DNA of 64,000 nucleotides from a virus. Below the pieces are notes generated by a model. The model worked only from the letters and a program-made list of their open reading frames with translations. It was not told the origin of the DNA and made no database searches. Shown piece by piece: positions 13,075 to 60,638 of the stretch. The stretch is from IMG/VR virus record IMGVR_UViG_3300025889_000075, positions 32,001-96,000 of that record, one strand, 5' to 3'. Positions within the stretch are counted from its first letter, which is position 1. Each line of letters starts with the position of its first letter. The position numbers and the translations under genes were made by a program.

Positions 13075-14163
13075 ATGGCTCATAAAAATATACCAGACGT
13101 AAATAGAAGAGAACTTATATTTCGAGATCGTAGAATCTCAGAAATTCTTCCTGACTATTTTCCGAGCACGTATCCAAAACTAACTGCTCTGTTTGAGTAT
13201 TACTATGAGTTTCTTTTAGAAAACAACGCGTCGACGCAATTACTTGACCATTTGTATCAAACTCGTGATATTACTACGCTCGATGATACGCTTCTAACCT
13301 TCCTTGAAGACGAACTACTTTTAGGTCAAGCATACTTCGAAGGGTTTCAAGATAAAAGATCAGCTGCTAAATTTTCTAATACCCTGTATAGATCGAAAGG
13401 AAGTAAATATTCTATTCAACAATTCTTTAGAATGTTCTTTGGAATCGATCCTGAGATTCGTTATACAAAAGAAGATGTATTCACTCTTGGAAGTTCAAAG
13501 ATTGGTCCCAACGACGGTAAATTTTTAACTGATGACGAATTATATCAGACCTATGCAATCTTAGTTAAAACAGGATTGCCAATTTCAAAATGGAAAGATA
13601 TTTACAAATTGTTTGTACACCCTGCAGGATTTTATCTTGGTGCTCAAGTTTCTATTCTTGGTGAAGGGTTTTTTGGTAATCAAACACCACCGATAGGTCT
13701 GAAACAAATGCCGGATCCTGGGACTGCAGAGGTTCCAATTCCTATTTACGAAGGTTTGGCAGATCTCGGCATGATGTCCGCTACTTCGTTTATTGGTGAT
13801 AATTCTTACGCTGAAATAGATTCTACATATACTAATGGTATTGGCGCTATTCGTTATGATATTAATCGTTCAAGTATTAGAACGTTTGGTAGTAGTACAT
13901 TATATTTGCTAGACAAATCATATCCTTCATTGCTTAAAATGATTGATGGTTATGTTATTGCTGATACTACAAGTATATCTTATCCTGGCGTAACGCATGG
14001 ATTCGACGCTACTGCAGATAGTGCTTGGCAAATATCTTATCCAACCTTTGATAATGATTCTGCTTCTAGTAATGAGCAATTCGGAGGAAGGTTCGACTTC
14101 TCTCTTGACTCAGGGTTGGGATTGTTTGGTAAAGAAAGTTTAGTTCTTTTCAGTGACAACTAA
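13075..14163 (+). CDS. gp7: Baseplate wedge initiator (short gp7-like)
   Basis: LYRSKGSKYSIQQFFRMFFG, YQTYAI, KLFVHPAGF; follows gp6. Confidence 0.7.
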   Translation: MAHKNIPDVNRRELIFRDRRISEILPDYFPSTYPKLTALFEYYYEFLLENNASTQLLDHLYQTRDITTLDDTLLTFLEDELLLGQAYFEGFQDKRSAAKFSNTLYRSKGSKYSIQQFFRMFFGIDPEIRYTKEDVFTLGSSKIGPNDGKFLTDDELYQTYAILVKTGLPISKWKDIYKLFVHPAGFYLGAQVSILGEGFFGNQTPPIGLKQMPDPGTAEVPIPIYEGLADLGMMSATSFIGDNSYAEIDSTYTNGIGAIRYDINRSSIRTFGSSTLYLLDKSYPSLLKMIDGYVIADTTSISYPGVTHGFDATADSAWQISYPTFDNDSASSNEQFGGRFDFSLDSGLGLFGKESLVLFSDN

Positions 14164-14171
14164 TATAAATA
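14164..14171 (+). promoter_or_regulatory. T4-type late promoter TATAAATA
   Basis: Exact consensus, intergenic. Confidence 0.85.
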
Positions 14172-14196
14172 AACAAGTATTAAATTGGGATAAAAA

Positions 14197-15195: not shown

Positions 15196-15224
15196 TTTGA
15201 CAGGATCAACGGAGAGAAGAACTA

Positions 15225-16610: not shown

Positions 16611-16619
16611 GGATAAACT

Positions 16620-22466: not shown

Positions 22467-22690
22467 TGAAATTACTTAAAATTGAAGACACAACTTCTTT
22501 CGCTAAAGATGCAGAAACGGGTGCAGTAGTCTCTATAAATAGAAATGATGCCGCGCTCGCGCGCGAGCGAAAGGAAAAAAGAAAACTCGAGCAGTTACAA
22601 CAAGAAGAACTCAACGATAAGGTTAAATCGTTAGAAACTAAAGTTGATCTGATTCAAGAAATGTTAACTAAGATATTAGAGAAAGTATAA
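22466..22690 (+). CDS. Small coiled-coil hypothetical protein
   Basis: Coupled on both sides by TAATG overlaps; KDAETGAVV motif and coiled-coil tail. Confidence 0.7.
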   Translation: MKLLKIEDTTSFAKDAETGAVVSINRNDAALARERKEKRKLEQLQQEELNDKVKSLETKVDLIQEMLTKILEKV

Positions 22691-25260: not shown

Positions 25261-25273
25261 TTTGGAGTAAATA

Positions 25274-44186: not shown

Positions 44187-44468
44187 ATGCCGTCTGCGGA
44201 TTCTTCTACTGGAACCTCAATATTACTAGATTCTTCTTGGGAAAATTATTTCACCTTTTCTAGAAGTATTTCTGGATTAAGTTTTTTAGATTCAGATCTC
44301 CACATTGTAGAAAAAAATATATTTGGTAATTCTTTAGATTCCGATGACGCTGCATTTTCTTTTGGCACTAAACAAATTTCTGGTTTGCTTGATGATTGGG
44401 ATAAGGGATCTGATCCTCCTGTTGCAATACAACCTGGTTATAGAAAACAATTTTGGTGGGATGGATAA
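44187..44468 (+). CDS. Small hypothetical protein with four DS motifs
   Basis: Fills the gap between coupled neighbours; ADSS, LDSS, LDSD, LDSD. Confidence 0.6.
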   Translation: MPSADSSTGTSILLDSSWENYFTFSRSISGLSFLDSDLHIVEKNIFGNSLDSDDAAFSFGTKQISGLLDDWDKGSDPPVAIQPGYRKQFWWDG

Positions 44469-45491: not shown

Positions 45492-45499
45492 TATAAATA
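45492..45499 (+). promoter_or_regulatory. T4-type late promoter TATAAATA
   Basis: Exact consensus, intergenic. Confidence 0.85.
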
Positions 45500-45535
45500 G
45501 ATGTACAAATCATTATTTCTTAATGGAGTAAAACA

Positions 45536-46477
45536 ATGAGTGATAGCAGTAACAAAGAAGTGGCAATTTATGAAAATATTGTTAGAGATCTTGTCAAGAT
45601 TGAAAACCGCGAAGAGTTTTATGTTCCGGTTGAGAAGGTTTTTGGTCAAGGTACTCTAGCAGAAACACCAAGTTTTGGTGGTAGAAGTTTAGCAGAAAAT
45701 TCTGTAATGGTAACTGAAGCATTTAAGAATACCAACGAACTTCAAAACATCTGGAACAGAAGTCATTCTCAGTGGGACTGGAAACATATTAATATGTCCT
45801 ACCACGGTGACTTTAAAAATGTTCGTCAGATTGCCGCTGAAATTAATCGTAAAAAACAGGCACTTGATGAAGCGAAATGGCGTCATGTCAAGAACGAAAT
45901 CAAGTTAAGGAAGATTGAAGAAAAACTCGAAAACCCTGATCTTGATTATTGGAGGCGAATTGAACTTCAAGTTGAAGTCGCTCAAATGAGAGAAGGTATT
46001 GCTTCTGGTACAACTTATATTGAAGGTGCTATGAAAGATGTTCTTGCTTTGAACAATCTTTATGAGCAAATGAAAGATAAGTTTGAAGGATTTACTGAAG
46101 CAGATTTCGAACGCGAAGAATCAAAATCGCATTTGAAAAGAAGCGTTGTTCAATGTATTCGAGATGTTCGTCAAAGTGGTTCTATCACTAAAGGTGAGCA
46201 AGAATATCTTGAACAAATTGGTGTTAATCCAACAAAAATGCTTTATCTAATTCGAGAATATATAAATAAAGAAGAAGCGAAGGACGATTGGAGCGTTACG
46301 GCGTTACATGATTTTGTTGCTAAGATTGTTGATGAATTGATTGACGTTCTTCAGGTCGATCGTAAGAGAATGGAGTTAATGGGTTTCAATCCAGATCCTG
46401 TTGACGCATTAACTTATGATAATAAAGTTGCTCTTAAATTAGAACACAAAGGAGATGACACCGATGGCAGTAGTTGA
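45536..46477 (+). CDS. Coiled-coil hypothetical protein heading the propeller operon
   Basis: SD GGAG; charged helical composition; no recognised family. Confidence 0.7.
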   Translation: MSDSSNKEVAIYENIVRDLVKIENREEFYVPVEKVFGQGTLAETPSFGGRSLAENSVMVTEAFKNTNELQNIWNRSHSQWDWKHINMSYHGDFKNVRQIAAEINRKKQALDEAKWRHVKNEIKLRKIEEKLENPDLDYWRRIELQVEVAQMREGIASGTTYIEGAMKDVLALNNLYEQMKDKFEGFTEADFEREESKSHLKRSVVQCIRDVRQSGSITKGEQEYLEQIGVNPTKMLYLIREYINKEEAKDDWSVTALHDFVAKIVDELIDVLQVDRKRMELMGFNPDPVDALTYDNKVALKLEHKGDDTDGSS

Positions 46478-46790
46478 GTATAAACTCCATGCAGTTGGAA
46501 CTAATGCGATGCAAGCACCGCATTGGATGAAAGATGGTGGTTACTGGCGCAATCCTGATGATCACACAATGGTTGGTTGGGTTCCAGATAACTCTGAATT
46601 TTGGGTACCGGATACAGTAGTCACATTGACTCGTGCTGAATTTATCACGCGTCAGTTGGGCATTCATGCTGCTCATCCGATGACTGAACCAGCAGACCCT
46701 GCAGATCCAGCGTCTGAACCAACGACATTAACCAACGAACAAGTTGAAACGCAAGCAGGTACTTGGTACGATAATTTCCACGCTGAGTAA
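46464..46790 (+). CDS. Hypothetical protein
   Basis: SD GGAG 9 nt before ATG 46464; MAVVEYKLH...DGGYW. Confidence 0.65.
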   Translation: MAVVEYKLHAVGTNAMQAPHWMKDGGYWRNPDDHTMVGWVPDNSEFWVPDTVVTLTRAEFITRQLGIHAAHPMTEPADPADPASEPTTLTNEQVETQAGTWYDNFHAE

Positions 46791-46800
46791 GGAATAACAC

Positions 46801-48171
46801 ATGGCGATTAGTGTTCCTGCTCTTCTGGATTCTGCACAGACCTACGCGAGCGCGGCAGATAGTTCTAATGAGGCAATCAACTTACTACAAATAGTTGATG
46901 CTTCTCACGCGTACACGTCTGGTTATACCCGAAGAAACTATTATGACAGTGCTGGTCAATTACCCACTGCTGATAGTTCTATGGAGGGTATGATCACGCT
47001 CGTTAAAGGCACACAAGCAGGTGGACTAGGTAATGGTCTGTATCTATGTACAGGAACTGCTTGGACAGAATTTTATGATTTAGATTCTGGCGATTATATC
47101 GACCCATTTTCTTTACAAGGTTCAACTTCTGGGTTTGTTGCAGGTGGGCATTATACTTTTGCTACAGCATTAAATTCTATTGGAACATATTCTTTCGGAA
47201 GTTCTGTTACTCTTTCAGATCATGGTGATTTGATTAGTGCATCCGCATATTCTGCACCGTCTAATGATGCTTCTTATGGATATGTTCATGGTGGGGTTAG
47301 AACAGCGCCAGTTCCTAATCCTTCTGTGGATAGATTTTCTTTTTCTAGTTCTACTGGTGGAACAAATGTTGGTAGTTTGTCGTTTTCGTATTATTATGCT
47401 GCAGGTTTTAGTTCACCTTCTTCTTATGGATATAACGTAGGTGGACAAGGGCAGACAATTATTCCATCTTTTCCTAGTACATACGGAAATTCAATTCAGA
47501 AATTTCCTCTAACGAGTTCAACTACCTCAACAGACATTGGAGATTTAGTTGTTAACGTACACAGGCAAATTGCTAATAATTCTACTGAATACGGTTACAA
47601 TTCTGGTGGTACAGCCTCACCATGGTCACCATCTCCAACAGCATTTAGTGCTCCAACTCTAGGACCAAGCGGACCTTCTTGGGGTCCAGGATCATATGGA
47701 ACAAATGATGCCAGCCCAGGCACAACTGATTTTTTTGTTGCTGTTAGAGATAAATTTCCATTTGCATCAGACACTAATTCATCTTGGATTGCTAATTTAA
47801 ATCCTTTCAGATCATCAGGCACTGGTGTTAACTCTTCAGACAAAGGGTTTTTCTTTACTGGATATCAAAGAACAAGTCCCTGGATTGGGATTAATGCCCT
47901 CCAACATTTTCCGTTTGCAAGCGATACTACTATTACTAGTAATGGTCTTCTTCAAACAGTAAATACATATCCTGCAGTGTATGTTGAAGGTTCTGGTTCT
48001 TCTTCAACAGATTATGGATATATCCATGGAAGTAGAGGAACTGCTTCTTATCCAGCAATTACTAGTGACATAATTAGATTTCCATGGTCTGCTACAGGCG
48101 GTGGAGAAACAGACGTTGGAGACATAACTTCTGGATATGGTAGGATTAATGCCACAGGACATCAGGTGTAA
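46801..48171 (+). CDS. Propeller-array paralogue 1 (anchor type A + divergent kelch-like propeller)
   Basis: About 100-aa DS-rich N-terminus; QGSTSG; degenerate KFPF.SDT..GDL...GY..GG repeats; ends GHQV. Confidence 0.75.
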   Translation: MAISVPALLDSAQTYASAADSSNEAINLLQIVDASHAYTSGYTRRNYYDSAGQLPTADSSMEGMITLVKGTQAGGLGNGLYLCTGTAWTEFYDLDSGDYIDPFSLQGSTSGFVAGGHYTFATALNSIGTYSFGSSVTLSDHGDLISASAYSAPSNDASYGYVHGGVRTAPVPNPSVDRFSFSSSTGGTNVGSLSFSYYYAAGFSSPSSYGYNVGGQGQTIIPSFPSTYGNSIQKFPLTSSTTSTDIGDLVVNVHRQIANNSTEYGYNSGGTASPWSPSPTAFSAPTLGPSGPSWGPGSYGTNDASPGTTDFFVAVRDKFPFASDTNSSWIANLNPFRSSGTGVNSSDKGFFFTGYQRTSPWIGINALQHFPFASDTTITSNGLLQTVNTYPAVYVEGSGSSSTDYGYIHGSRGTASYPAITSDIIRFPWSATGGGETDVGDITSGYGRINATGHQV

Positions 48172-48173
48172 TT

Positions 48174-49424
48174 ATGGCAATTAATATAACAAAACTAATT
48201 AATGCCGTATCCGGAATCGTAGGAAACCTGGACAGTGACAACACGCTCACTGAATTGAACCGTGGTACAATTGCTGCACAGGAAGTAAACGAGGCGAGAG
48301 ACGCTCTCTCGTTCGCTACGGTTGCTGATTTCGAAACAGCTGACTCAACCAATGAGGGTAATATTGTCTATGCTAGTTCAACGAAAAAATATTACGTTTC
48401 TATTCACAATCGTTGGGCGCCAATTAATTTAACAGGTCCATCAACGACTGCTCCTGCTGCTCCATCTAGTCTAATCGTTCAAGGTTCTAGTTATGGGTAT
48501 ACGACTGGTGGTGCCGCGTCACCGGTATTGAATAATACGCAGTCATTAACTCAAATTTTACAATTTTCCTTTACTTCTGATGGTAATGCAACGGACGTTG
48601 GAGACATTAACCCAGCAGTTCCGCTTGGAAGAGTTGCTTCTAGTTCACAGACTTCTTCGACTCATGGTTATCATTCTGGTGGGTTAGTAACCCCACCACA
48701 AATTACGTCAACAAATAATATACAAAAATGGTCATTTACCAGTCCATATAATGGATCAGATGTCGCAGATTTGTCTTCTGATACTTTTAGACCGTTTGGG
48801 TCTAGTTCACCAACTGATGGTTATTCAACTGGGGGAAGAGGAGGAACACCAATAGTTTATCTAACAGTTCATGATAAATTTCCAACCTCTTCCGATACAA
48901 ATGCTACGGACAATGGTGATTTGACAGCGGGTAGATATCAGACTGGGGGAGGAAATTCTTCTTCTTCTGCTTCATATTTCGCTGGTGGATCCACACCCAC
49001 AGGGGCTGTGAATATAATAGAAAAAATACCTTTTGCGGCGGGTGGAACAGCAACAGACGTTGGCGACCTCACAACACCGAACATCAACAGCACTGGTGCA
49101 AATACTTCTGATCATGGTTACACTCTCGGTGGTTCTAATAATGGATATGCAGAAGCAAATTTAAATGTGATACAGAGATTTTCATATTCTTCTGATGGTA
49201 ACGCTACAGACTATGCTGATCTTGCAAACGGAGTTTACACTGGGGCAGGTTGTTCATCAACATCTTATGGTTATACAACTGGCGGACAAAGTTCACCAGG
49301 TGCCCCGCAAGCAGGTGCTGCAATTAATGTAATACAGAAATTTCCTTTCTCTACTGCTACAAATGGCACTGACGTGGGAGATTTGACTAGCATCTTAGCT
49401 AATCATTCAGGAAATCAAAACTAA
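48174..49424 (+). CDS. Propeller-array paralogue 2 (anchor type D)
   Basis: MAINI start; F.SDGNATDVGD repeats; ends GNQN. Confidence 0.78.
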   Translation: MAINITKLINAVSGIVGNLDSDNTLTELNRGTIAAQEVNEARDALSFATVADFETADSTNEGNIVYASSTKKYYVSIHNRWAPINLTGPSTTAPAAPSSLIVQGSSYGYTTGGAASPVLNNTQSLTQILQFSFTSDGNATDVGDINPAVPLGRVASSSQTSSTHGYHSGGLVTPPQITSTNNIQKWSFTSPYNGSDVADLSSDTFRPFGSSSPTDGYSTGGRGGTPIVYLTVHDKFPTSSDTNATDNGDLTAGRYQTGGGNSSSSASYFAGGSTPTGAVNIIEKIPFAAGGTATDVGDLTTPNINSTGANTSDHGYTLGGSNNGYAEANLNVIQRFSYSSDGNATDYADLANGVYTGAGCSSTSYGYTTGGQSSPGAPQAGAAINVIQKFPFSTATNGTDVGDLTSILANHSGNQN

Positions 49425-50626
49425 TGACAATCAGCATAACAAACATAATAACAGCAATTGAGAACAAGATAGCAGCTCTTGACAGTTCTGTATCATCTCA
49501 AGATATGCGTCATTATTTTAGTGCTGCTGGTTTGACCAACACTACGATCACTCAGTATTATGATAGTGCAGGTCTTTTGCCAACAGCAGATTCTGATTAC
49601 AAAGGGCAGATTGTTTTAGTATCAAATCCTTCATCAGCAGCTTCAGGAAATGCATTGTATATTTGTACTGACTCTGGTGGAGGTGTTGCTTGGTCAGCGT
49701 GGCAGACACTTGATTCTGCTCCTACGTATTCGCCTGCACAGGGTTCATCATATGGGTATAATTCTGGTGGTGGATTCCCATCACCTGTAAATACTATTCA
49801 AAAATACTCATTTACATCAGATGGTAATGCTACTGACGTTGGTGATTTAACAGAGGTTAGATCTGCTTTAGCAGGGCAATCTTCAGATGTTAGTGGATAT
49901 GTTTCTGGTGGAACTCAAAGTAGTGGAAACAGGAATTACATCGAAAATTTTCCTTTCTCTACTGACGCTAATTCTACTGACGTTGGAGATTTGACAATAG
50001 GTAGATGGGGGTGTTCAGGTACTATGTCAGATGCTAATGGGTATACTTCTGGCGGTACTGGTACGCCGACGATTGTAAATGTCATCGACAAATTTCCATT
50101 GTCGTCTAATGCAAATGCTACTGATGTAGGCGATTTAACATCAGGAAGATATGGTGCGGCAGGTAATTCATCAACTACTAATGGATATGCTTCTGGTGGT
50201 TACCAACCACCTACTATAAATGCTATAGAGAAATTCCCATTCTCGTCTGATGCGAATTCTTCTGACGTAGGAGATTTGATAGCAGCAAGATACTATTCAG
50301 CAGGTCAATCATCAGATAATAGTGGTTATGTTTCTGGAGGATCAACTCTTGTAGCGCCGAGCGCTTTAAACGTCGTTGACAAATTCCCATTCTCTTCTGA
50401 CGCTAATTCTACCGAGGTGGGTAGTTTGACTCAAGCAAGGGGTCAAATGGCGGGAACATCATCAACTGTCAGTGGATATAATTCTGGCGGTTGGGTGCCA
50501 CCATCTTATCCGGTCAGTGGTTCTACAAACATTATAGACAAATTTCCATTTGCTTCTAATGGTAGTGCTACTGATGTTGGTGATCTTTTAACATTACAAC
50601 TGTTATCAGCAGGACAGCAGGTATAA
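49424..50626 (+). CDS. Propeller-array paralogue 3 (anchor type A)
   Basis: YYDSAG.LPTADS anchor; six KFPFSSDAN.TDVGDL-type repeats; ends GQQV. Confidence 0.8.
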   Translation: MTISITNIITAIENKIAALDSSVSSQDMRHYFSAAGLTNTTITQYYDSAGLLPTADSDYKGQIVLVSNPSSAASGNALYICTDSGGGVAWSAWQTLDSAPTYSPAQGSSYGYNSGGGFPSPVNTIQKYSFTSDGNATDVGDLTEVRSALAGQSSDVSGYVSGGTQSSGNRNYIENFPFSTDANSTDVGDLTIGRWGCSGTMSDANGYTSGGTGTPTIVNVIDKFPLSSNANATDVGDLTSGRYGAAGNSSTTNGYASGGYQPPTINAIEKFPFSSDANSSDVGDLIAARYYSAGQSSDNSGYVSGGSTLVAPSALNVVDKFPFSSDANSTEVGSLTQARGQMAGTSSTVSGYNSGGWVPPSYPVSGSTNIIDKFPFASNGSATDVGDLLTLQLLSAGQQV

Positions 50627-50629
50627 ACA

Positions 50630-51820
50630 ATGGCAATTAATATACAAACCTTGTTAGATGTAATTAATGCTAAGATCACCGCTGGTGTAGCAGCAGGATC
50701 CACTGACTCTGATCGATTAGTTACGTTGACTGCTTGGAGAGACAATCACCAGAATGCAGCATTCTTTAATACATTTGCTGATTTGCCCGCTGCTGATTCT
50801 TCGAATGCAGGAAATTTCTTTTCTACAGGTACAGGTTCTAGTAAAAAATACTATGTTTCTTGGAAAAATAAATTGAAAGAAGTTTTGTCAACAGATAGTG
50901 ATGCAGTAGGAAATCAAACATTACCTAACTCAGTAGGTCAAACTTATGGTTTTCATGCTGCAGGAATATCAGGAAACGATCCAGATACAACGCATACAAA
51001 TATAATTGAAAGATTTCCTTTTTCCTCTGACGCTAATGCTACTGATGTTGGTGATTTGTCTCCGACTCCTTTAGGTGGAAACCTTGGATCTTCTTCTTCG
51101 GTTGATCGAGGGTGGGCATTCGGCGGTAGCGGTGGCGTAAACTTTACGTTTGCTAATTCTAATTTGAGCAGCAATAATGCTTATTCAGCTAGCAATTTTG
51201 GTATACAAGGGGGTCAAAGCGAAACACATCTTTATGCTTTAGGTGGGCGTCCGACAAGTTTGCCTACTGCACCAAACGATACCTTTGCGCAAAAAAGACA
51301 ATTTTCTAATACAACTACTACTACTCTAACTTCTTTTTCTAATGCTAGACATCACGCAGCAACCGTTTCTGGTCCTGCTGCAGTTTATACTTCGGGTGGA
51401 TATAGATATTGGCATCCAAACGATAATCCTGCACTTATTACTCAGTCGCCCGGAACAGAAAAACATTCTTTTAGTAATGATGCTAGGTCTACTGTGCCTG
51501 GACTTCCCGCAAAATCTCCATATTATAATGTCCATCAAGGAATGCAAAATGAAGTAAATGGATATCTTGGAAGAGCAACACAATTAATAAAATTTCCATT
51601 TGCTTCGGAAACTCCAGTTTCAGTTAGTCAACCAATAATGCCAATCGGCGGGTATTTTTCTGCTAGTTCTTCTTCATCAGGTTATGGTTATAGATTCGCT
51701 GGTGGACCACCCGGTAGTTATCCAGGAATAGTTAAGTTTCCTTGGAACAGCGAATCAACAGTAACTAGCGTAGGAAATTTAACTTCTCCAAGAACTAGGG
51801 GTTCGGGGCATCAAAATTAG
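50630..51820 (+). CDS. Propeller-array paralogue 4 (anchor type D, divergent propeller)
   Basis: ADSSNAGN..KKYYVS anchor; one canonical and several degenerate repeats; ends GHQN. Confidence 0.75.
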   Translation: MAINIQTLLDVINAKITAGVAAGSTDSDRLVTLTAWRDNHQNAAFFNTFADLPAADSSNAGNFFSTGTGSSKKYYVSWKNKLKEVLSTDSDAVGNQTLPNSVGQTYGFHAAGISGNDPDTTHTNIIERFPFSSDANATDVGDLSPTPLGGNLGSSSSVDRGWAFGGSGGVNFTFANSNLSSNNAYSASNFGIQGGQSETHLYALGGRPTSLPTAPNDTFAQKRQFSNTTTTTLTSFSNARHHAATVSGPAAVYTSGGYRYWHPNDNPALITQSPGTEKHSFSNDARSTVPGLPAKSPYYNVHQGMQNEVNGYLGRATQLIKFPFASETPVSVSQPIMPIGGYFSASSSSSGYGYRFAGGPPGSYPGIVKFPWNSESTVTSVGNLTSPRTRGSGHQN

Positions 51821-51828
51821 GAACTATT

Positions 51829-53028
51829 ATGGCAGTCGATATTAAAAAACTATTAGAGATTGTACAGAAAAGAATTAATAATCTTGATTCTTCGACAGTC
51901 ACATTGCAAGAGTTAATTGATATTGCTAACTTTACTGATAAAGCATCAAAGGGCACATTGCAATTTGTTGATGATTCGAGCGATTTGCCAAACTTATTAA
52001 GTGGTAATACGCCTAGTGCAGAGTCTCAAAAACAATTGATTTTTGTTAAGAACTCAGGAAGAATGTTTGTCAAAAAAGATAAGTGGAAACCATTTACGTA
52101 CAGAGGTTTGATTCCTTCCTCTGGACCATCCTTTGTTTATGGTGGTACTACAACAGGGTTTCGTGCTGGGTTGGTTTCAATTCCAACTTGGACATATTCA
52201 GACGCTATTTCTTCTTTTCCGTTCGCTAGTGATACTCCTTTCGCTAGTTGGGGATCTTTAACAGTTGCTAATGGTTATAACCATGGTTGGAGTAGTACAA
52301 CTCATGGATATACTGCTGGTGGTTATGGTCCTGCTGTACCAGGAGACAATAGTAAAATCGATAAATTTTCTATGAGTTCGCCTGGTAATGCCAGTACCAC
52401 TGCAAACCTTCCTCTTGGTAGATCACAGGGTGTAGCGCACCATAATGACACTAATGGGTATTTATCTGGCGGCAGTGGTGGTGGTTCATATGCATTTAAA
52501 TTTATTTTTTCCAGCGATACTACTAATGCTACTACTGTTCCAGCATTGGCGACACCTTTAAGTCTTAACAATAGATCTCCGCAGGTGAGCACAACTTATG
52601 GGTATACTTCTGGAGGAACTACCTTTTCCAATTCAATAGAAAAGTTTCCCTTTGCTTCAGAGGATGCCTGGTCTGATGTAGGAGATTTAACTGTTGGTGG
52701 ACGCAAATCATCAGGAATGTCTTCTGATACACACGGATATAATGCTGGTGGACAAATATCTCCACATCCAACGATAGGTAACGATATTAATAAATTCCCT
52801 TTCGCTTCAGATACAAACGCTACTGATGTAGCAAGTTTAACTACTGCAGCTGCAGCGAATACTGGTGTAAGTTCAACCACTAACGGATATTCTTTAGGAG
52901 GATGGACTCTTAACCCTGGATATAATAATGTATCTACAAGCGATAAATTTCCGTTTTCGTCAGAAACAAGCATTTCTAATGTGTTCAGTAATACAGGTGG
53001 TGGTGAAGCGGCAGGACATCAGGTATAA
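51829..53028 (+). CDS. Propeller-array paralogue 5 (distinct anchor, type E)
   Basis: MAVDIKKLL; FPFASD/E repeats; ends GHQV. Confidence 0.78.
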   Translation: MAVDIKKLLEIVQKRINNLDSSTVTLQELIDIANFTDKASKGTLQFVDDSSDLPNLLSGNTPSAESQKQLIFVKNSGRMFVKKDKWKPFTYRGLIPSSGPSFVYGGTTTGFRAGLVSIPTWTYSDAISSFPFASDTPFASWGSLTVANGYNHGWSSTTHGYTAGGYGPAVPGDNSKIDKFSMSSPGNASTTANLPLGRSQGVAHHNDTNGYLSGGSGGGSYAFKFIFSSDTTNATTVPALATPLSLNNRSPQVSTTYGYTSGGTTFSNSIEKFPFASEDAWSDVGDLTVGGRKSSGMSSDTHGYNAGGQISPHPTIGNDINKFPFASDTNATDVASLTTAAAANTGVSSTTNGYSLGGWTLNPGYNNVSTSDKFPFSSETSISNVFSNTGGGEAAGHQV

Positions 53029-53053
53029 GAGTTAATTCTCACATAATTTTTTT

Positions 53054-53061
53054 TATAAATA
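53054..53061 (+). promoter_or_regulatory. T4-type late promoter TATAAATA splitting the array into two units
   Basis: Exact consensus in the only sizeable intergenic gap of the array. Confidence 0.82.
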
Positions 53062-53091
53062 GATTGTGATAATTTGTGTGAGGATATTTCC

Positions 53092-53406
53092 GTGGTATTA
53101 AATCTAACCGCATTAATTGCAAGTCTCGACTCCGCTGCTAACCTGGCAGACTCAAGCGACCCTGCATTAGATCTTTTACAAATTCTTGATGCAACAAGAA
53201 TGAACAACAACGCGACGACTAAATATTATGCAGCTCGCGCTGATCTGCCTATTGCAGATTCAGCGAATGAGGGCATGGTTGTTCTCGTTTCTGATTTAAC
53301 TGGAGCAAACGCAGAAAGAGGTTTGTTTGTTAGCACAGGAACATTTTGGAAAGAATTGCAAGGGTTTGAAGCAGGTAGTTCATTAACGCCAAGAACAAAC
53401 CCGTAA
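53092..53406 (+). CDS. Anchor-only paralogue 6 (type A, no propeller)
   Basis: GTG start with SD GAGGA; LDSA...ADSS....LLQI.DA...YY....LP.ADS..EGM..LV aligns to the N-terminus of 46801. Confidence 0.7.
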   Translation: MVLNLTALIASLDSAANLADSSDPALDLLQILDATRMNNNATTKYYAARADLPIADSANEGMVVLVSDLTGANAERGLFVSTGTFWKELQGFEAGSSLTPRTNP

Positions 53407-53418
53407 GGTAATTAATTC

Positions 53419-54711
53419 ATGGCGATTAATATTCAAAAACTGTTAGACGCTGTACAGGCAAAAATCAATGCCAGTACCGGATCATCTGGTATGGTTGAAT
53501 TGAATCATTTGTCTAATTTGTCGCAGTGGTTGAATAGTTACACCAATCAATCAAGCGTTAAAGAATATACTAATCTAGCAGCATTTCCAACTGCAGACTC
53601 AGCAAACCACGGAGATATAGCATTTAGTCTTGACAGTGGCGCTTATCGTATTTCTGAACAATTAGCGTGGAGAGAAATATCACTAAATGCTGATAGTGCG
53701 ATTTCTTCTGGACCTAGTTCTCCACCTTCGCCATTACAAGCAGCGAGTAATTATGGATACGTTGTTGGAGGTCAAACTCCTGTTACTGCTTCTATGGAAA
53801 GGTTTGCTTTTGCAAGTTCTGCCAACGGGACGTCTACTGGAAATTTATCGACCCCAAGATGGGGTGCGGCGGGTTATTCTTCTTCTACTGATGGATATGC
53901 TATTGGTGGTTCGACTCCTTTAGTGACACCGCATTTAAATGGTTATGATGATGTTTTAAAATACCCGTTTGCTTCTAGTACTCCATCCACCCAAATAGGA
54001 ACTTTGAATGCCCTTTCACCTGCTCCGACAGGAACTCCAGGAGGGGGAAGAATGGGTACTTCTAATATTTGTTCTCCAACTTCTGGATATGTTGTTGGAT
54101 TTGGTGGTAGATTAAGTCCCCCAAATCCGCTAGAACCACAATATCTATCAACTAATTGGAAATTCCCTTTTTCTTCTCCAACAGTAACTGATCTGTCGCT
54201 AGTAGGGGATTTAACAAGCGCCATATTTTACAGCAGTGGATCTTCATCAGGAGATTATGGGTACTTGGCGGGTGGTGAAACTGATGTTCCATCTCCAGCA
54301 TTAGTCTCCACTGTTGAAAAATGGTCTTTCTCTTCCGATGGTAATTCAACATCTGTTGGTTCTTTGTCTGGTCATTCTCGATCTGATGGGGGAAGTTCTG
54401 GTCCTACAAATGGTTATGCTCAGGGATCAAATCCAGCAGTAGGAACACCGACCGCAGTAGATAAAGTATGGAAATATAGTTTTACTTCTGACGGAAATGC
54501 AACAGAAATTGGAACTCTTTCAATAGATAGGTTTGGTGTGAATGGACATTCTGGTGGAACTCATGGATATGCGTCTGGCGGTGTTTTACCGAGCAACGGA
54601 GGTTATTCAAATGTTATTGATAGATTTCCTTTTTCTGCTGATACTAATTCTTCTGATGTAGGCGATCTAGCAGTTGCATCTCGTAATTATGCTGCTCCAG
54701 CGTCAAACTAG
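53419..54711 (+). CDS. Propeller-array paralogue 7 (anchor type B, divergent Pro-rich propeller)
   Basis: FPTADSANHGDIAFSLDSGAYRISEQLAWRE anchor; six degenerate repeats. Confidence 0.78.
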   Translation: MAINIQKLLDAVQAKINASTGSSGMVELNHLSNLSQWLNSYTNQSSVKEYTNLAAFPTADSANHGDIAFSLDSGAYRISEQLAWREISLNADSAISSGPSSPPSPLQAASNYGYVVGGQTPVTASMERFAFASSANGTSTGNLSTPRWGAAGYSSSTDGYAIGGSTPLVTPHLNGYDDVLKYPFASSTPSTQIGTLNALSPAPTGTPGGGRMGTSNICSPTSGYVVGFGGRLSPPNPLEPQYLSTNWKFPFSSPTVTDLSLVGDLTSAIFYSSGSSSGDYGYLAGGETDVPSPALVSTVEKWSFSSDGNSTSVGSLSGHSRSDGGSSGPTNGYAQGSNPAVGTPTAVDKVWKYSFTSDGNATEIGTLSIDRFGVNGHSGGTHGYASGGVLPSNGGYSNVIDRFPFSADTNSSDVGDLAVASRNYAAPASN

Positions 54712-54720
54712 GTATAACTT

Positions 54721-55866
54721 ATGGCAATCGATCTAAAAGAATTACTCATAGCAGCACAGAATAAGATCGGTAATTCGACCATCTCAACTGCAACCAGAGA
54801 TCTTGTATTTCTGGCAAAAACTGCTACACGTGGTGATACGTCAATCGTTGCTTTTGATTCTGATGGTGAGTTTCTTGATTCAGCATCACATGTTCATAGA
54901 ATTGCATATCATAGAGGGAGACAAAATCTATTCTTGTTAGATAGTGATAGAACATGGAAACCGATCAGTGGTACTGTTGCTGCTGAATATTCATTCCAAG
55001 GAAGCACTTCTGGATATGTTTCTGGTGGCTTCGCGCCAGGGTCAACAAATACCATCCAGAAATACCCATACACTTCTAATGGTAATGCGACTGATGTTGG
55101 TGATTTGACTGAAGCAAAAGTAGGTACATCAGGACAATCATCCTCTGATAATGGATATAATTCTGGCGGAACCCCAAATATAAACACCATAGAGAAATTC
55201 CCATTCTCATCTGACGCCAATTCTACTGATGTGGGTGATTTGACAGTAGTAAAACCATATACAGCAGGTCAATCATCAGCAAGTAATGGATATTCTTCTG
55301 GTGCTAATAGTCCTGCTGCAAACGGTGGTAATACCATTGACAAATTTCCGTTTGCTGCTGATGCGAACGCTACTGATGTCGGAGATATAACGGTAGCAAC
55401 TGGTCTGTCAGCAGGTCAATCATCCGAAACTCATGGTTATACTTCTGGAGGTGCGATGATTGACAAATTTCCATTTGCTTCTGATGGTAATGCTACTGAT
55501 GTGGGCGATCAATCAATATACAGAACCGAAGTGAGTGGTCAATCATCCGAAACTCATGGTTATATGTCTGGCGGTTGGAATTACAATGGAGGTTCTCCAC
55601 TTATGTATAATGTTATAGATAAATTCCCATTCTCATCTGATACTAACGCGACTGATGTCGGAGATATGACATCGGTGAGGAGAGCGGCGGGAGGTACATC
55701 GTCAACTACTAGCGGATATACTGCTGGTGGCGTAATTCCTACTGGATCCACGCCATTCTTAAACATCATAGACAAATTTCCATTCTCTTCTGATGGTAAT
55801 GCTACTGACGTAGGAGATTTGCTCGCCCCAAATTATTATATAGGTTCTGTAGGACAACAGGTATAA
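54721..55866 (+). CDS. Propeller-array paralogue 8 (anchor type C)
   Basis: FDSDGEFLDSA anchor; six canonical repeats; ends GQQV. Confidence 0.8.
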   Translation: MAIDLKELLIAAQNKIGNSTISTATRDLVFLAKTATRGDTSIVAFDSDGEFLDSASHVHRIAYHRGRQNLFLLDSDRTWKPISGTVAAEYSFQGSTSGYVSGGFAPGSTNTIQKYPYTSNGNATDVGDLTEAKVGTSGQSSSDNGYNSGGTPNINTIEKFPFSSDANSTDVGDLTVVKPYTAGQSSASNGYSSGANSPAANGGNTIDKFPFAADANATDVGDITVATGLSAGQSSETHGYTSGGAMIDKFPFASDGNATDVGDQSIYRTEVSGQSSETHGYMSGGWNYNGGSPLMYNVIDKFPFSSDTNATDVGDMTSVRRAAGGTSSTTSGYTAGGVIPTGSTPFLNIIDKFPFSSDGNATDVGDLLAPNYYIGSVGQQV

Positions 55867-55869
55867 CTT

Positions 55870-57069
55870 ATGGCAATTAATATAAGAAATTTAATGACAG
55901 TAGTGCAAACGAAGTTAAACGCGACAACTTCGACCACTCCTGCACTTGAATTTAATCGCCTGTCAAAATTAGCAGATACCTTGAATGATTTTACAACTGG
56001 TATTAAAACATATACAGTTGCTGCAAGACCTGTTGCAGATTCTGCCAATCATGGAGAAATTATTTTTAGTTCAGATAGTGGAGCATTTTTTATCTCGGAA
56101 CAACTATCATGGAGAGAATTAGCAGTTGGTGATAGTGCGATTGTTGCTACTCCTACTTATACCTTCCAAGGGAGCACTTCTGGATATACTTCTGGTGGTA
56201 GAACAGCAGCAAGTAACGTTGCACTAAACACTATTGACAAATTTTCTTTTGCTCCAGGTGCTCAGAATGCTACAGACGTAGGTGATTTGACATTAGGTAT
56301 GTATGGTGGCGCTGCAGGTCAATCATCATCTGTATCTGGTTATACTTCTGGTGGATATCCAGGAACTCGATCCAGCGTAATAGATAAATTTCCATTCGCT
56401 TCTGACGGTAACGCAACAGATGTTGGTGATTTAACATCATCAAGATGGTATCTTTCAGGTCAATCTTCTTCTTCTAATGGGTATTCTGCTGGTGGTCCTG
56501 GTTCAAACAATGTTATTGATAAATTCCCATTTTCTTCAGACGCTAACGCTACTGACGTAGGAGATTTGACAGTAGGAAGATACGGATCATCAGGTCAATC
56601 ATCTACGACTCATGGATATGCTTCTGGTGGATTTACTCCTCTCTCAAATGTCATTGATAAATTCCCGTTTTCATCCGACGCTAATGCTACTGACGTTGGC
56701 GATATAACAGTAGCAAGACGTTATACAGCAGGTCAATCATCAACAGATAATGGATATACTTCTGGTGGAGAGCAAAATCCTCTGGCCACGAATACTGCTT
56801 CCAATGTCATAGATAAATTCCCATTTTCATCTGATGCTAACGCTACTGACGTTGGTAATTTAACAATAGCGCGAGCTCATGTTACCGGACAATCCTCGAC
56901 TGTTAATGGATATACTACTGGTGGATGGTTATGGCAGCCATTCCCGACTCCACCAGTTGTCTATAATACAATTGATAGGTTCCCATTCTCTACTACTGCT
57001 AACGCTACTGACATTGGAGATTTAACAATAGCAAGATATAGTGGAAATACAGAGGGACAACAGGTATAA
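55870..57069 (+). CDS. Propeller-array paralogue 9 (anchor type B)
   Basis: ADSANHGE...SEQLSWRE anchor; six canonical repeats; ends GQQV. Confidence 0.8.
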   Translation: MAINIRNLMTVVQTKLNATTSTTPALEFNRLSKLADTLNDFTTGIKTYTVAARPVADSANHGEIIFSSDSGAFFISEQLSWRELAVGDSAIVATPTYTFQGSTSGYTSGGRTAASNVALNTIDKFSFAPGAQNATDVGDLTLGMYGGAAGQSSSVSGYTSGGYPGTRSSVIDKFPFASDGNATDVGDLTSSRWYLSGQSSSSNGYSAGGPGSNNVIDKFPFSSDANATDVGDLTVGRYGSSGQSSTTHGYASGGFTPLSNVIDKFPFSSDANATDVGDITVARRYTAGQSSTDNGYTSGGEQNPLATNTASNVIDKFPFSSDANATDVGNLTIARAHVTGQSSTVNGYTTGGWLWQPFPTPPVVYNTIDRFPFSTTANATDIGDLTIARYSGNTEGQQV

Positions 57070-57072
57070 CTT

Positions 57073-58223
57073 ATGGCAATTAATATACAAAAATTACTAG
57101 AAGCGATACAAACAAGTATAGGTAATGCCACACCTGCTACACCCACACGCGAACTCGAAATTCTTACCAAAGGTGCATTTAAGTGGGGCGACAATCAAAT
57201 CACTTCATTTGATTCTGATGGAGAATTTCTTGACTCAGCAACTACTTCGCCATATATGTTAGCATACCATACAGGCCATATATGTTAGCATACCATACAG
57301 GTAAGAAAAACATTTATGCATTTGACAGCGGATCATGGCAATCGATCAGTGGTACTGTTGCTGCTGGATATTCATTCCAAGGTTCTACCAGTGGATATAC
57401 TTCTGGTGGATTGGTACCACCATTCTCTAACGTCATTGACAAATTCCCATTCTCATCTGACGGTAATGCTACTGATGTAGGAGATTTGACAGTAGCAAGA
57501 TCTAATGCAGCAGGTCAATCATCGTCTGCTAGTGGATATACTTCTGGTGGACATCCCTTCCCACTAGACGTAATTGACAAATTCCCATTCTCAGCTGATG
57601 CTAACGCTACTGATGTTGGTGATTTAACAGTAGCAAGACGGTATCTTGCAGGTCAATCTTCTTCTGCTAATGGGTATTCTGCTGGTGGTCCTGGTTCAAA
57701 CGTAATTGACAAATTCCCGTTTTCTTCTGATGCTAATGCTACTGATGTAGGCGATTTGACAGTAGCAAGATATTATTTAGCAGGTCAATCATCTACTGTT
57801 AGCGGATATTCTTCTGGTGGCACTCCACCATACACAAACGTCATTGATAAATTCCCATTTTCTGCTGATGCTAATGCTACTGATGTAGGTGATCTGACAG
57901 TAGCAAGAGGATATGTAACAGGTCAATCATCAACTGTTAGTGGGTATACTTCTGGGGGATTTAGTCCAGCTCAACAATCAAACGTAATTGACAAGTTTTC
58001 ATTCTCAACTGACACTAACGCTACTGACGTTGGGGATTTGACAGTAGCAAGATACAATTTAGCAGGAGGTCAATCATCTACTGCTAGCGGGTATACTTCT
58101 GGAGGTACGACATCCGACGCTACCAACATCATAGATAAATTCCCATTCTCATCTGATGGTAATGCTACGGATGTAGGTGATTTATCAGTAACTAGATATG
58201 GTGGAGCAGGTCAACAGGTATAA
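57073..58223 (+). pseudogene. Propeller-array paralogue 10 (anchor type C) frameshifted by a 26-bp tandem duplication
   Basis: ORFs 57073-57288 and 57282-58223 join into one 374-aa paralogue if one copy of the repeat is removed. May be an assembly artefact. Confidence 0.75.
57249..57300 (+). repeat. Perfect 2 x 26-bp tandem repeat GCCATATATGTTAGCATACCATACAG
   Basis: Copies at 57249-57274 and 57275-57300. Confidence 0.95.
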
Positions 58224-58226
58224 GTT

Positions 58227-59384
58227 ATGGCAATTAATATACAGAATTTATTAAATGTTGTTCAGGCGAAGTTAAACGCAACAACGCCAACGACACCTGC
58301 ACTTGAATTTTCTAGATTGTCATCGATATCTGATATGTTAGAAGATCATGGAGCGGCTGTTAAATCTTATCCTGGATTAGCATCATTTCCAACAGCAGAC
58401 TCAGCGAATCATGGTGACATTGCTTACAGTTTAGATAGCGCAACGTATAGAATATCAGAGCAACTTGCTTGGAGAGAAATATCATTAAATGCTGATAGTG
58501 TGATTGCTGCTGCTCCTACTAGCACACAAGCACAAGGTTCTACCAGTGGATATAATTCTGGTGGATTTTTAAATTCCGGCAACTCAAACGTCATCGAAAA
58601 ATTTCCATTCTCTACTGACGCTAATGCTACTGATGTTGGTGATTTGACACTAGGAAGATATAATGCATCAGGTCAATCTTCAACTGCTAGTGGGTATACT
58701 TCTGGTGGATCCAGTCCTGGACTATCACCCTATATTGTCAATAACATTGATAAATTTCCATTCTCTGCTGATGGTAATGCTACCGATGTAGGGGATTTGT
58801 CAGTAACAAGAACTGGAACAGCAGGACAATCTTCAGACGCTAGTGGATATATTTCTGGAGGTAGTTTGCCTGCTGCTTCTAATGTCATTGATAAATTCTC
58901 ATTCTCTTCTGATGGTAATGCAACTGACGTAGGCGATTTAACAGAAGCAAGAATAAAACCATCAGGACAATCATCAACTGTTAGTGGATATAATTCTGGT
59001 GGAACAGGGACTGGCAATATCATAGATAAATTCCCGTTCGCCTCTAATGCTAATGCTACCGATGTTGGTGATATAACGGTAGCGAGAAACTATGCTGTAG
59101 GTCAAAATTCAGACGCTAGTGGTTATACCTCTGGAGGATCCCCAACGTCGAATGTTATCGATAAATTCCCGTTTTCATCCGACGCGAATGCTACTGACGT
59201 AGGAGATTTGACAGTAGCAAGATATACATCAGCAGGTCAATCGTCAACTGCTAGTGGATATACTTCTGGAGGGTATCCATATCAAAACACTATTGATAAA
59301 TTCTCATTCTCTTCTGATGGTAATGCGACTGACGTTGGAGATATGACAGAAGTAAAGGGTTTCGTTATAGGACAACAGGTATAA
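58227..59384 (+). CDS. Propeller-array paralogue 11 (anchor type B)
   Basis: FPTADSANHGDIAYSLDSATYRISEQLAWRE anchor; six canonical repeats; ends GQQV. Confidence 0.8.
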   Translation: MAINIQNLLNVVQAKLNATTPTTPALEFSRLSSISDMLEDHGAAVKSYPGLASFPTADSANHGDIAYSLDSATYRISEQLAWREISLNADSVIAAAPTSTQAQGSTSGYNSGGFLNSGNSNVIEKFPFSTDANATDVGDLTLGRYNASGQSSTASGYTSGGSSPGLSPYIVNNIDKFPFSADGNATDVGDLSVTRTGTAGQSSDASGYISGGSLPAASNVIDKFSFSSDGNATDVGDLTEARIKPSGQSSTVSGYNSGGTGTGNIIDKFPFASNANATDVGDITVARNYAVGQNSDASGYTSGGSPTSNVIDKFPFSSDANATDVGDLTVARYTSAGQSSTASGYTSGGYPYQNTIDKFSFSSDGNATDVGDMTEVKGFVIGQQV

Positions 59385-59387
59385 ATT

Positions 59388-60638
59388 ATGGCAATTGATC
59401 TAAAAGAATTATTAAGTGCAGTACAGAGCAAGATTGGTAATCTTACGCCGTCAAGTCCATCGCGTCAAATTGAATTCTTGGCGAAAGCAGCAGTTAGGTC
59501 AGGAGAGAATTTAGTTCGCTCTTACGATTCTGATGGTGAGTTTTTAGATTCTGCGACAACTTCGCCTTATTTAATGCTCTATCATACAACAGATAAAAAT
59601 ATCTACATGTGGGATAGCGATGGTACTTGGAAACCGATTAGCGGCAATGAAGCGTTATTGGTTGGTTTACAAGGGGATTTAGCGGGGTATGCTATAACAG
59701 GAAGAAAAGCCACAAACTCCGACATAGATAATATTGTTGCATTTAGGTTTGCTTCAGGATCAGAAACTATCTATAATCAGGGTCTTAGTGGGGTAAACTC
59801 TTTGCCGGCAGGTGTTGGTATGGGTCATGGTCGTGGTACAATGAGTGAGACTAATGGATATCATTACGGTGGTTATAATCCTCCTTCTCCAATGTCAAGC
59901 ACAATGTATAAATTTCCATTTTCTTCTACTGGTGGACTTTCTGGTTTAAGTAGTATGAGTCCGCATGGAGCATATGCTTGGACTGCAGCTGTTTCAGCAC
60001 AAGGTCCAGGATACGGTTATTATTCAGCTGGGCGAGCATTACCCGCAGGTGCATCAAGCGCAACACATAAATTTCAATTTTCTAATGATACTTCTGCGGC
60101 GACTCCTGTTGGGACTACTAATTTTAGCTCTTATGCTACTGGTCAAACAGATGTCGTAGGCGGGCAGGGTCATATATTTCAATATGATATCATTGGAGGA
60201 TCATCAAGAGATAAATACCCATTTGCCTCTGATGTTAATGCTACTGCTATAACAAGTATTTCGATCTCAAAATATGGTTCTCAAGGATCTACTGGAGACG
60301 CTAGTAATTATTATCAAGCAGGTGGAGTAAACCCAAGCGGAAGTACCATTTACACTGATATTTACAAAATGAATTTCACAAGTGAAGGACCTTCAACAAA
60401 CATCGGCGATTTAACTACTGCAAGATATCAGACTGGAGGTTATTCTTATTCTGGCGGAACTGCTTTTATTGCGGGGGGGAGTTCCGGAACTCCTTCTCCA
60501 AACTATTTAAACCCATTAGCATATACATCAACTATTGAAGGTATTTCTTTTGCTAGTGATACCATCGGTGTTGCTGCTGGTTCTGGAATGTCTGGACCAT
60601 CGCCAGCTCGATCTGGATATGGTTGCGTTCAGGTTTGA
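59388..60638 (+). CDS. Propeller-array paralogue 12 (anchor type C, divergent propeller)
   Basis: YDSDGEFLDSATTSPY anchor; degenerate repeats; ends CVQV. Confidence 0.78.
   Translation: MAIDLKELLSAVQSKIGNLTPSSPSRQIEFLAKAAVRSGENLVRSYDSDGEFLDSATTSPYLMLYHTTDKNIYMWDSDGTWKPISGNEALLVGLQGDLAGYAITGRKATNSDIDNIVAFRFASGSETIYNQGLSGVNSLPAGVGMGHGRGTMSETNGYHYGGYNPPSPMSSTMYKFPFSSTGGLSGLSSMSPHGAYAWTAAVSAQGPGYGYYSAGRALPAGASSATHKFQFSNDTSAATPVGTTNFSSYATGQTDVVGGQGHIFQYDIIGGSSRDKYPFASDVNATAITSISISKYGSQGSTGDASNYYQAGGVNPSGSTIYTDIYKMNFTSEGPSTNIGDLTTARYQTGGYSYSGGTAFIAGGSSGTPSPNYLNPLAYTSTIEGISFASDTIGVAAGSGMSGPSPARSGYGCVQV

Follow-up and report, generated by a model that had tools for sequence, protein, structure and literature searches.

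Why should one dipeptide, aspartate followed by serine (DS), recur in unrelated outer tail proteins of a phage, and in that order rather than the reverse? The question is raised by bases 32001-96000 of a virus record of 155,131 bp (IMG/VR record IMGVR_UViG_3300025889_000075), a stretch of 64,000 nucleotides hereafter called the window. Pfam matches identify a T4-type baseplate in it, and downstream of the baseplate genes lie about 40 kb that hold fibres, a giant fibre, twelve propeller paralogues, a sulfotransferase, a 2-oxoglutarate (2OG) oxygenase and a head-tail adaptor (Table 1). A first-pass annotation of this DNA had read DS as an acceptor site for glycosylation or another modification. 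We find that DS, and more sharply the tripeptide DSA, is in excess in the giant fibre and in other outer tail proteins, that in the conserved baseplate protein gp8 it occupies loops, that it is gained and lost across whole genomes, and that it co-occurs with a triad of genes for glycosyltransferases (GTs) or GT-like proteins. The best single explanation, to which we give somewhat less than an even chance, is that DS(A) is a serine acceptor tag for phage-encoded cytoplasmic glycosylation. No description of such a DS tag was found in the literature searched.

An ordered, protein-level excess of DS and DSA

Expected numbers of DS were derived for each protein from residue shuffles that keep its composition. 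The giant fibre has 116 DS against 31.5-31.7 expected, with SD depleted (11 against 31.5), and the density noted earlier for its first 370 aa (18 DS) continues along the chain. The other hand counts in the first-pass annotation were likewise all reproduced on recount: four DS in gp7, every one of them in its last 114 aa, five in gp9, six in gp8, four in the 93-aa open reading frame (ORF) at 44187, one to five in each propeller anchor, and two in the 626 aa of gp6, which is DS-poor as stated. Only the giant fibre (p<0.0005) and the fibre at 22690 (p=0.0015) are individually significant in the shuffle test; the gp8-like, gp9-like and 31501 proteins are borderline (p about 0.06), and DS is not enriched in the DUF4815/VrlC protein (7 against 10.6 expected) or in the 25274 protein (4 against 9.3). 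To say that DS saturates the peripheral proteins is too strong, the excess being uneven. Over all peripheral proteins minus the giant fibre, DS amounts to 106 against 95 expected (observed/expected, O/E, 1.11) and ranks 59th of 300 dipeptides.

The tripeptide DSA is a sharper signal in the peripheral proteins than the dipeptide. With the giant fibre and the propeller paralogues set aside, 22 copies are counted where 4.0 are expected, a 5.5-fold excess, and each of the other five orderings of D, S and A occurs one to nine times in the same set. DSA is at 6 against 9.1 in the rest of the genome, and at 11 against 10.7 in the fibre proteins of Phage C48C1, the closest deposited genome (gp6 identity 40%). 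That residue order matters, as had been claimed, is borne out by the propeller bodies, which have no DS where 28.8 are expected and yet have 50 SD. The N-terminal anchors of the same paralogues, about 110 aa long, carry 36 DS against 10.7 expected and 14 SD; anchor and body of one protein follow opposite DS/SD rules. No dipeptide is more depleted in the peripheral proteins than DT (O/E 0.57), whose O/E elsewhere in the genome, as in C48C1, is about 1. Selection for DS seems to exclude Thr in place of Ser.

Outside the giant fibre, the serines of DS come from both codon families (60% TCN, 40% AGY), as the first-pass annotation had observed, and GANTC is not enriched genome-wide (639 against 629 expected), which places selection for DS at the protein level. 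A DNA-level cause, in which GAY-TCN would create the CcrM site GANTC, was rejected on the same two grounds. Avoidance of a sequon in non-virion proteins was considered as well and rejected: DS O/E in the non-structural proteins is 0.74 in this phage, and the tagless C48C1 is depleted too (0.82), so that the depletion is generic. Capsid, sheath, tube and portal proteins are at the DS baseline in every genome examined; therefore what had been described as a decorated virion should read as a decorated outer baseplate and fibres.

DS in the loops of gp8

The gp8-like wedge protein is a conserved globular protein unrelated to the giant-fibre repeat family, and it is placed in the T4 gp8 family by its PF09215 match together with an AlphaFold2 (AF2) model that has a predicted local distance difference test score (pLDDT) of 87.5 and a predicted template-modelling score (pTM) of 0.82. 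In gp8 of this phage and five relatives, DS occurs 42 times against 20.4 expected, SD 14 times, and DSA 11 times against 1.8. Eleven deposited relatives taken as controls, among them pelagiphage HTVC008M, OM43 phage Melnitz, cyanophages and C48C1, have 28 DS against 34.3 expected, 43 SD, and 2 DSA against 2.7. The 119 closest homologues in a collection of 5.8 billion proteins have 858 DS against 379 expected, 331 SD, and 278 DSA against 38; DS outnumbers SD in 114 of them, and DT is again depleted (191 against 390 expected, O/E 0.49).

In an alignment of 66 homologues, 85% of the DS fall in eight hot-spots, and in the AF2 model every hot-spot, like every DS of the gp8 encoded in the window, lies in a loop that directly follows a strand or helix, none being a helix N-cap. 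The position of DS often shifts by one or two columns within a loop, and this sliding suggests that the loop requires a DS rather than a fixed residue. In the related contig G043 the same loops are present with other residues (DGAS, NSTD, GTPGN, TSIG, NDTT). Since the hot-spots are confined to loops and these loops are kept without DS in G043, the motif is dispensable for the gp8 fold.

DS-richness is gained and lost across whole genomes

Among 80 gp8 genes from IMG/VR, DS O/E is about 2.4 at an identity of at least 40% to the gp8 of this phage, and 1.05 at 29-32%. The 89 gp8 sequences of a tree separate well into two clades. Of the 58 rows in clade A, 50 are DS-rich and 3 DS-poor; clade B has 31, of which 21 are DS-poor and 2 DS-rich, and holds all the cultured pelagi-, methylo- and cyanophages. 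The comparison of orthologues proposed in the first-pass annotation thereby separates a DS-rich clade A from the gp8 of pelagi-, OM43- and cyanophages, which is at baseline.

Inside clade A there are two separate reversals, one in L247 (contig G043) and one in C48C1 with L281. G043, whose gp6 is 52% identical to that of this phage, has 2 DS against 2.5 expected in gp7, 1 against 1.0 in gp9 and none against 2.9 in gp8, and its fibres are DS-poor; C48C1 has 3 against 2.7 in gp8 and no DS-rich fibre. Median core identity to this phage is 54.5% for C48C1 and, for the related genomes G001 and G006, 54.5% and 56.5%. In the latter two, many different fibres are DS-rich, gp7 and gp8 are modestly so, and gp6 is DS-poor, as is VrlC in G001. 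Concerted loss across unrelated proteins, taken with the gp8 loops that are kept without the motif, points to a genome-level factor. DS-richness is shared by outer virion proteins that are not homologous, belongs to the genome as a whole, extends over the clade and is reversible; such a factor predicts concerted gain and loss of DS, which the structural need of each protein alone does not.

The DS-tagged phages are a large uncultured marine group of T4-like phages that is probably pelagimyophage-like. Metagenomic pelagimyophages are described, in passages of Zaragoza-Solas et al. (2020, PMC7029224), as having a 'host recognition cluster' between VrlC and the neck genes, and the layout of the window agrees with what those passages describe, the cluster here being 22690-62883. 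There is no psbA in the phage genome. An isocitrate lyase gene upstream of the window (genome 23978-25192) is a useful pointer to the host: its product shares 76% identity with a protein on a short contig from a gammaproteobacterial bin and 62-64% with alphaproteobacterial proteins, including one from a Pelagibacterales metagenome-assembled genome, and none of its top 80 matches is from Bacteroidota. Because of the lack of psbA, the relatives of the isocitrate lyase and the pelagimyophage-like layout, the gene content makes a proteobacterial host, possibly a SAR11-like one, likely.

The giant fibre and its helix starts

The repeats of the giant fibre open with phi-D-S-A-x-(V/I)-x-x-(L/I)-(I/V), and its DS sites are isolated, the commonest spacing being 9 residues. 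Clustering of the sites by sequence context, which replaced repeat masking by BLAST (which either masked too much when composition was not corrected for or missed internal repeats), reduces the 116 sites to 26 clusters with one common logo: hydrophobic at -1 (72%), Ala at +2 (66%), hydrophobic at +4 (62%) and Leu or Ile at +7/+8. A DS frequency no higher than composition predicts once repeats are collapsed had been named in the first-pass annotation as fatal to its claim; 26 contexts remain here after the grouping, beside the excess of DSA in the other peripheral proteins.

A helix N-capping box consists of a hydrophobic residue, an Asp as N-cap, a Ser as the first helical residue, and a hydrophobic residue four positions on. 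The giant fibre is the only protein in which this pattern of N-cap and hydrophobic staple is seen both in the logo and in the helix starts of a model: in an AF2 monomer of residues 200-520, all six long helices begin at the Ser of a DS, at a pLDDT of 54, and low model confidence is expected for a single chain of a fibre. The remaining DS of the model are within helices or at a hairpin turn. On this model, D would cap the N-terminus of each short amphipathic helix and S would be where the helix begins, and the logo and the helix starts together make helix capping a sufficient structural account of the giant fibre. The capping role that the first-pass annotation had offered as an alternative is thus supported in the giant fibre but not in gp8, with all its DS in loops.

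At E<=1e-3, 2,735 cluster representatives, every one metagenomic, belong to the giant-fibre repeat family; in the best 150 of these, O/E averages 2.93 for DS and is 0.57 for DT. The family is present on 319 IMG/VR contigs, and the 23 longer ones examined, 31-220 kb in length, come from phages of 150-220 kb, as fragments or as whole genomes. Giant-fibre segments had no tblastn match in 50,697 deposited phages, perhaps owing to low-complexity masking or to true absence, and a direct search of 11 relatives returned generic fibre motifs only; a 15-aa hidden Markov model of the repeat unit is insensitive, recovering 37 of the 116 sites in the giant fibre itself. The only sequence link to solved structures is a neighbouring fibre motif of the LVDSAPxxLxTLNELAAAL type, which is found in 9d93 and 6v8i. 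The giant fibre also has three copies of GNI(I/V)Px(x)DSTY(D/S)LG...(R/K)W(R/K)DLY (window 35425-35500, 36856-36930 and 41206-41280; residues about 433, 910 and 2360). The copy near residue 910 gives a weak match to PF12219 (endosialidase tail-spike), and the region of the motif also matches fibres of relatives without the DS helix repeat.

Candidate enzymes and a proposed glycosylation tag

A sugar-related island upstream of the window holds four GT25 genes, a radical SAM/SPASM gene, a HAD-nucleotidyltransferase fusion, methyltransferases and a cupin. The four GT25 ORFs match PF01755 at 33-50 bits against a cut-off of 24, in sequences from which the acceptor cannot be read. Three consecutive genes of the island, two of them GT25 and the third encoding a 225-aa protein with a WIDTD motif and a weak likeness to GT8/glycogenin, are syntenic in G001 and G006 at 48-56% identity, like core genes, and absent from C48C1. 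The one GT25 gene tested, g17832, has no homologue in deposited phages at E<1e-8. All DS-rich genomes that are adequately covered carry GT25 (G000, G001, G006, G029, G030 and G032, and also the fragment G037), and it is absent from C48C1, G031 (61% complete, with intermediate DS), G033, G034 and nine of ten cultured relatives; the only cultured relative that has it carries a single copy and a baseline gp8. A co-occurrence of DS with GT and sulfotransferase genes, as envisaged earlier, therefore holds for GT25, which tracks the DS-rich genomes, but not for the sulfotransferase. The latter and the oxygenase have homologues in G001 (57% and 47% identity) and none in the DS-rich G006; they are outside the core that tracks the DS tag and are not conserved across the DS-rich clade.

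We propose that Asp-Ser, followed by Ala or another small residue, would be a tag, specific to the clade, on the surface of outer baseplate and fibre proteins, both of its settings, the helix starts of the fibre and the eight gp8 loops, being predicted to leave the serine exposed. Soluble phage glycosyltransferases would O-glycosylate this serine in the cytoplasm, before or during tail assembly, and the best candidate enzymes would be those of the clade-conserved GT25-GT25-GT8-like triad. The result would be a sugar coat on the fibres and the baseplate periphery, with capsid and sheath uncoated. The acceptor-site claim of the first-pass annotation thus gains from the genome-level trait, the gp8 surface loops and the co-occurrence with the GT triad; what we infer is a modification of the serine, its identity as a sugar, and the enzyme that adds it. 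Stated for the clade as a whole, the proposal is that an abundant group of phages, with SAR11-like hosts probable, has a phi-Asp-Ser-(Ala/small) sequon used by the GT25/GT25/GT8-like set, and that loss of the enzymes leads to loss of the sequon from all tail proteins. This may be right, although we lean slightly towards doubting it.

If true, tailed phages of Gram-negative marine bacteria would have their first described case of protein glycosylation directed by a sequon, and it would be found in one of the ocean's most abundant phage groups. The GTs of lipopolysaccharide (LPS) type in pelagimyophage-like genomes would be reassigned from the host surface to the phage particle, and a coat on the fibres would matter for how hosts are recognized, how well particles withstand proteases and grazing, and how sticky they are. 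The DS index of gp8 or of the fibres is a countable marker that can be scored in thousands of metagenomic genomes. If the serines are unmodified, what is left is a fibre repeat family of very large size that had not been described, and a loop signature of the clade for which some other explanation must be sought.

Several points weigh against glycosylation. The case for an enzyme-read tag is built from sequence and models, for a clade without a cultured member. As D and S suffice as N-cap and staple in the giant fibre, modification is not needed for its 116 sites, and the largest exposed surfaces (capsid, sheath and tube) are without a DS excess. The coupling of GT and DS amounts to few independent events, a single gain at the root of clade A and, in C48C1, a single loss that is informative, and seventeen genes of this phage, a curli-like exported-protein cassette included, share the pattern of presence in G001 and G006 and absence from C48C1. 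C48C1 keeps one annotated glycosyltransferase that has neither a Pfam match nor a BLAST homologue in this phage. The GT island is without the late motif TATAAATA, which several virion genes have, and a Sigma-70 promoter scan of the island gave no more matches than chance would. GT25 enzymes are known for the sugars of LPS and lipooligosaccharide and for collagen hydroxylysine, not for Ser. Finally, pelagimyophage GTs are assigned in passages of PMC7029224 to modification of the host O-chain (LPS).

The Maf/MptE-like family PF01973 has no match in G000, G001, G006, G029 or G030 and one sub-threshold match (12 bits) in G032, adjoining GT25 genes, and GT2 (PF00535) is absent from the 23 contigs with the DS repeat. 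Collagen-type Hyl-Gal modification by a 2OG oxygenase and GT25 was rejected, as there are no notable collagen-like Gly-X-Y tracts. For the idea of DNA glycosylation, a ThyA/hydroxymethylase-family gene is absent from G000 and present once in each of G001 and G006. PHROGs gave no function for the unknown ORFs of the island and the fibre cluster. Beyond the window, a five-gene block (genome 139563-142800) occurs, as the GT triad does, in G001 and G006 and not in C48C1; it is probably homologous to the 'curli operon' of pelagimyophages described in passages of PMC7029224.

Competing explanations

A purely structural idiom is possible, though we think it rather unlikely. Here DS would be N-cap and staple in the fibres and an Asx-type turn starter in the loops, inherited within the clade and lost where drift or a change of fibre set removed it, and the GTs would serve the host O-chain or DNA. 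The giant fibre agrees with this in its logo, including the Leu or Ile at +7/+8, and in the six modelled helices that begin at the Ser of a DS; the very large repeat family retains DS, and solved fibres have the neighbouring motif. The assignment of pelagimyophage GTs to host LPS, in the passages cited, is in its favour too, as is the lack of any sequon avoidance specific to this phage when compared with C48C1. However, no DS of gp8 is a helix N-cap, the loops of G043 persist without DS, and the loss of DS is concerted over gp7, gp8, gp9 and the fibres in two lineages. Moreover, turn propensity cannot explain why DS exceeds SD by 2.6:1 in this clade only.

It is improbable, in our judgement, that DS serves some other surface function, be it a docking site for a clade-specific partner such as a fibre-network protein or an assembly chaperone, a cation patch, or a site of phosphorylation, sulfation or acylation. 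The genome-level trait and the surface loops fit such a function equally well, the fibre cluster holds a sulfotransferase and a 2OG oxygenase, and several clade-specific genes of unknown function share the phyletic pattern of the GT triad (for example g10862, 57-58% identity). Nevertheless, neither of the two enzymes is present in the DS-rich G006, two residues make a poor docking or metal site, and no kinase or acyltransferase was seen in the Pfam scans.

It might be argued from the concentration of most DS copies in one repetitive protein, the want of individual significance in gp7 and the 93-aa ORF, and the low pooled O/E of the peripheral proteins that composition, repeat amplification or chance has produced an artefact. 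This is very improbable: the shuffles preserve composition, 26 context clusters remain after the grouping of sites, and the account is refuted by the DSA excess outside the repeats and the replication in 119 gp8 homologues and several whole genomes.

Comparison with known systems

The first-pass annotation had likened DS to the O-glycosylation sequon of Bacteroidetes, and one might suppose that a host system of this general type reads D-S-A on the virion proteins; we give this next to no credence, as the analogy fails on both mechanism and motif. In Bacteroidota the glycan is built on undecaprenyl phosphate, flipped, and moved en bloc in the periplasm to exported, non-cytoplasmic proteins, at a sequon D-(S/T)-(A/L/V/I/M/T) in which Ser and Thr are used about equally and L, I and V are preferred third (PMC12871550). 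Like that sequon, the motif described here has three residues starting with Asp-Ser, allows Ala third, and is enriched in a substrate class by proteome statistics; 75% of the giant-fibre sites literally fit D-S-(A/I/L/V/M/T). Unlike it, the motif has Ala in third place in 66% of giant-fibre sites and L, I or V in 2%, and Thr is avoided (DT O/E 0.49-0.57). The substrates here would be virion parts assembled in the cytoplasm, the candidates for the enzyme role are small, soluble proteins of the GT-A type, and a proteobacterial host is probable, to judge by the isocitrate lyase, the lack of psbA and a genome architecture that resembles pelagimyophages as far as the passages cited describe them. 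By inspection, there is no signal-peptide-like segment at the N-termini of the giant fibre and all propeller paralogues. T4-type tails assemble in the cytoplasm.

Should DS be read by an enzyme, as the glycosylation proposal has it, two other systems would be closer working models. The Ser-Asp repeat adhesins of staphylococci are GlcNAc-modified by the dedicated GT-B (GT4) enzymes SdgA and SdgB, and, as would be the case here, a Ser next to an Asp is glycosylated in the cytoplasm on a fibrous surface adhesin with very many sites per chain. Theirs are long unstructured (SD)n tracts, whereas the DS sites described here are isolated, in defined helices or loops, and in the order DS; no GT4 turned up in general Pfam scans of the island and window ORFs, the whole genome not having been searched with PF00534. 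In mycobacteriophages, capsid and tail-tube subunits are reportedly glycosylated by phage-encoded GTs, a finding ascribed to Freeman et al. 2023, with no short sequon defined. Phage GTs would in both cases decorate their own structural proteins in the cytoplasm, but here there is no DS excess in capsid or tube, and a defined di- or tripeptide is found on the baseplate periphery and the fibres. The DS tag belongs to neither system.

In the 'DSL' motif of acyl carrier proteins, the Ser at a helix start is the phosphopantetheine acceptor, so that a DS at the start of a helix can serve structure and modification at once. The layout is the same as that of the giant-fibre DS; the difference is that neither a carrier fold nor a phosphopantetheinyl transferase is found here and that the gp8 sites are loops. 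The pelagimyophage cluster, as described in passages of PMC7029224, is similar in being a variable cluster of fibres, glycosyltransferases and other enzymes, and differs in that the clade-conserved GT triad of this phage is outside the cluster, upstream of the window. The searched passages of that paper do not mention a DS motif.

Other features of the region

Table 1. Genes and gene groups considered in the text (window coordinates unless marked as genome)
Feature	Coordinates	Strand	Remarks
GT25-GT25-225-aa (GT8-like) triad	genome 17832-19820		about 13 kb upstream of the window
gp6, 626 aa	from 11193		Pfam
gp7-like wedge protein, 362 aa	13075..14163	+	4 DS, all in variable C-terminal third
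gp9/10-like, 332 aa	14197..15195	+	5 DS (4 DSA, NKTLDSA repeats included); preceded by TATAAATA late motif
gp8-like baseplate wedge protein, 461 aa	15225..16610	+	PF09215, E 1.6e-11; 6 DS (3 DSA)
DUF4815/VrlC-like, 1948 aa	16620..22466	+	PF16075; internal negative for DS; left border of host recognition cluster as described in passages of PMC7029224
Fibre, 856 aa	22690..25260	+	17 DS (7 DSA); 17 against 7.8 expected, p=0.0015
Fibre, 855 aa	31501..34068	+	13 DS against 8.3 expected, p=0.056
Giant fibre, 2855 aa	34129..42696	+	mosaic of short repeats; 116 DS, 77 DSA
93-aa ORF	44187..44468	+	4 DS; not individually significant (p=0.12)
Twelve propeller paralogues and stand-alone anchor ORF (53074-53406)	46801..60638	+	anchors DS-rich, bodies without DS
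Sulfotransferase	60689-61528	+	PF13469; right end of fibre cluster; candidate modifying enzyme
451-aa protein	61528-62883	+	C-terminal 2OG-Fe(II) oxygenase domain (Pfam); candidate modifying enzyme

The DS of the 22690 fibre are partly in internal repeats (KDSAGT three times, LDSTTIDGSL..NDSAY two to three times), and the 31501 fibre has an orthologue in G006 at 42% identity. In the gp7-like protein, a PTFDxDSA motif is kept across the clade. The propeller anchors are homologous to one another and share the motif (L/F)P(T/A)ADSxN(E/H)G..(I/V)(V/A)(F/Y/L).

A 313-aa ORF (window 45536-46477) directly follows a TATAAATA late motif; it is 60% identical to its counterpart in G001, above gp6 and gp8, is absent from G006 and C48C1, and has only weak Pfam matches of coiled-coil type. 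Just past the end of the window and downstream of the adaptor, a 268-aa ORF (window 64296-65102; genome 96296-97102) has 7 DS against 2.9 expected and may be another tagged outer protein, perhaps of the neck.

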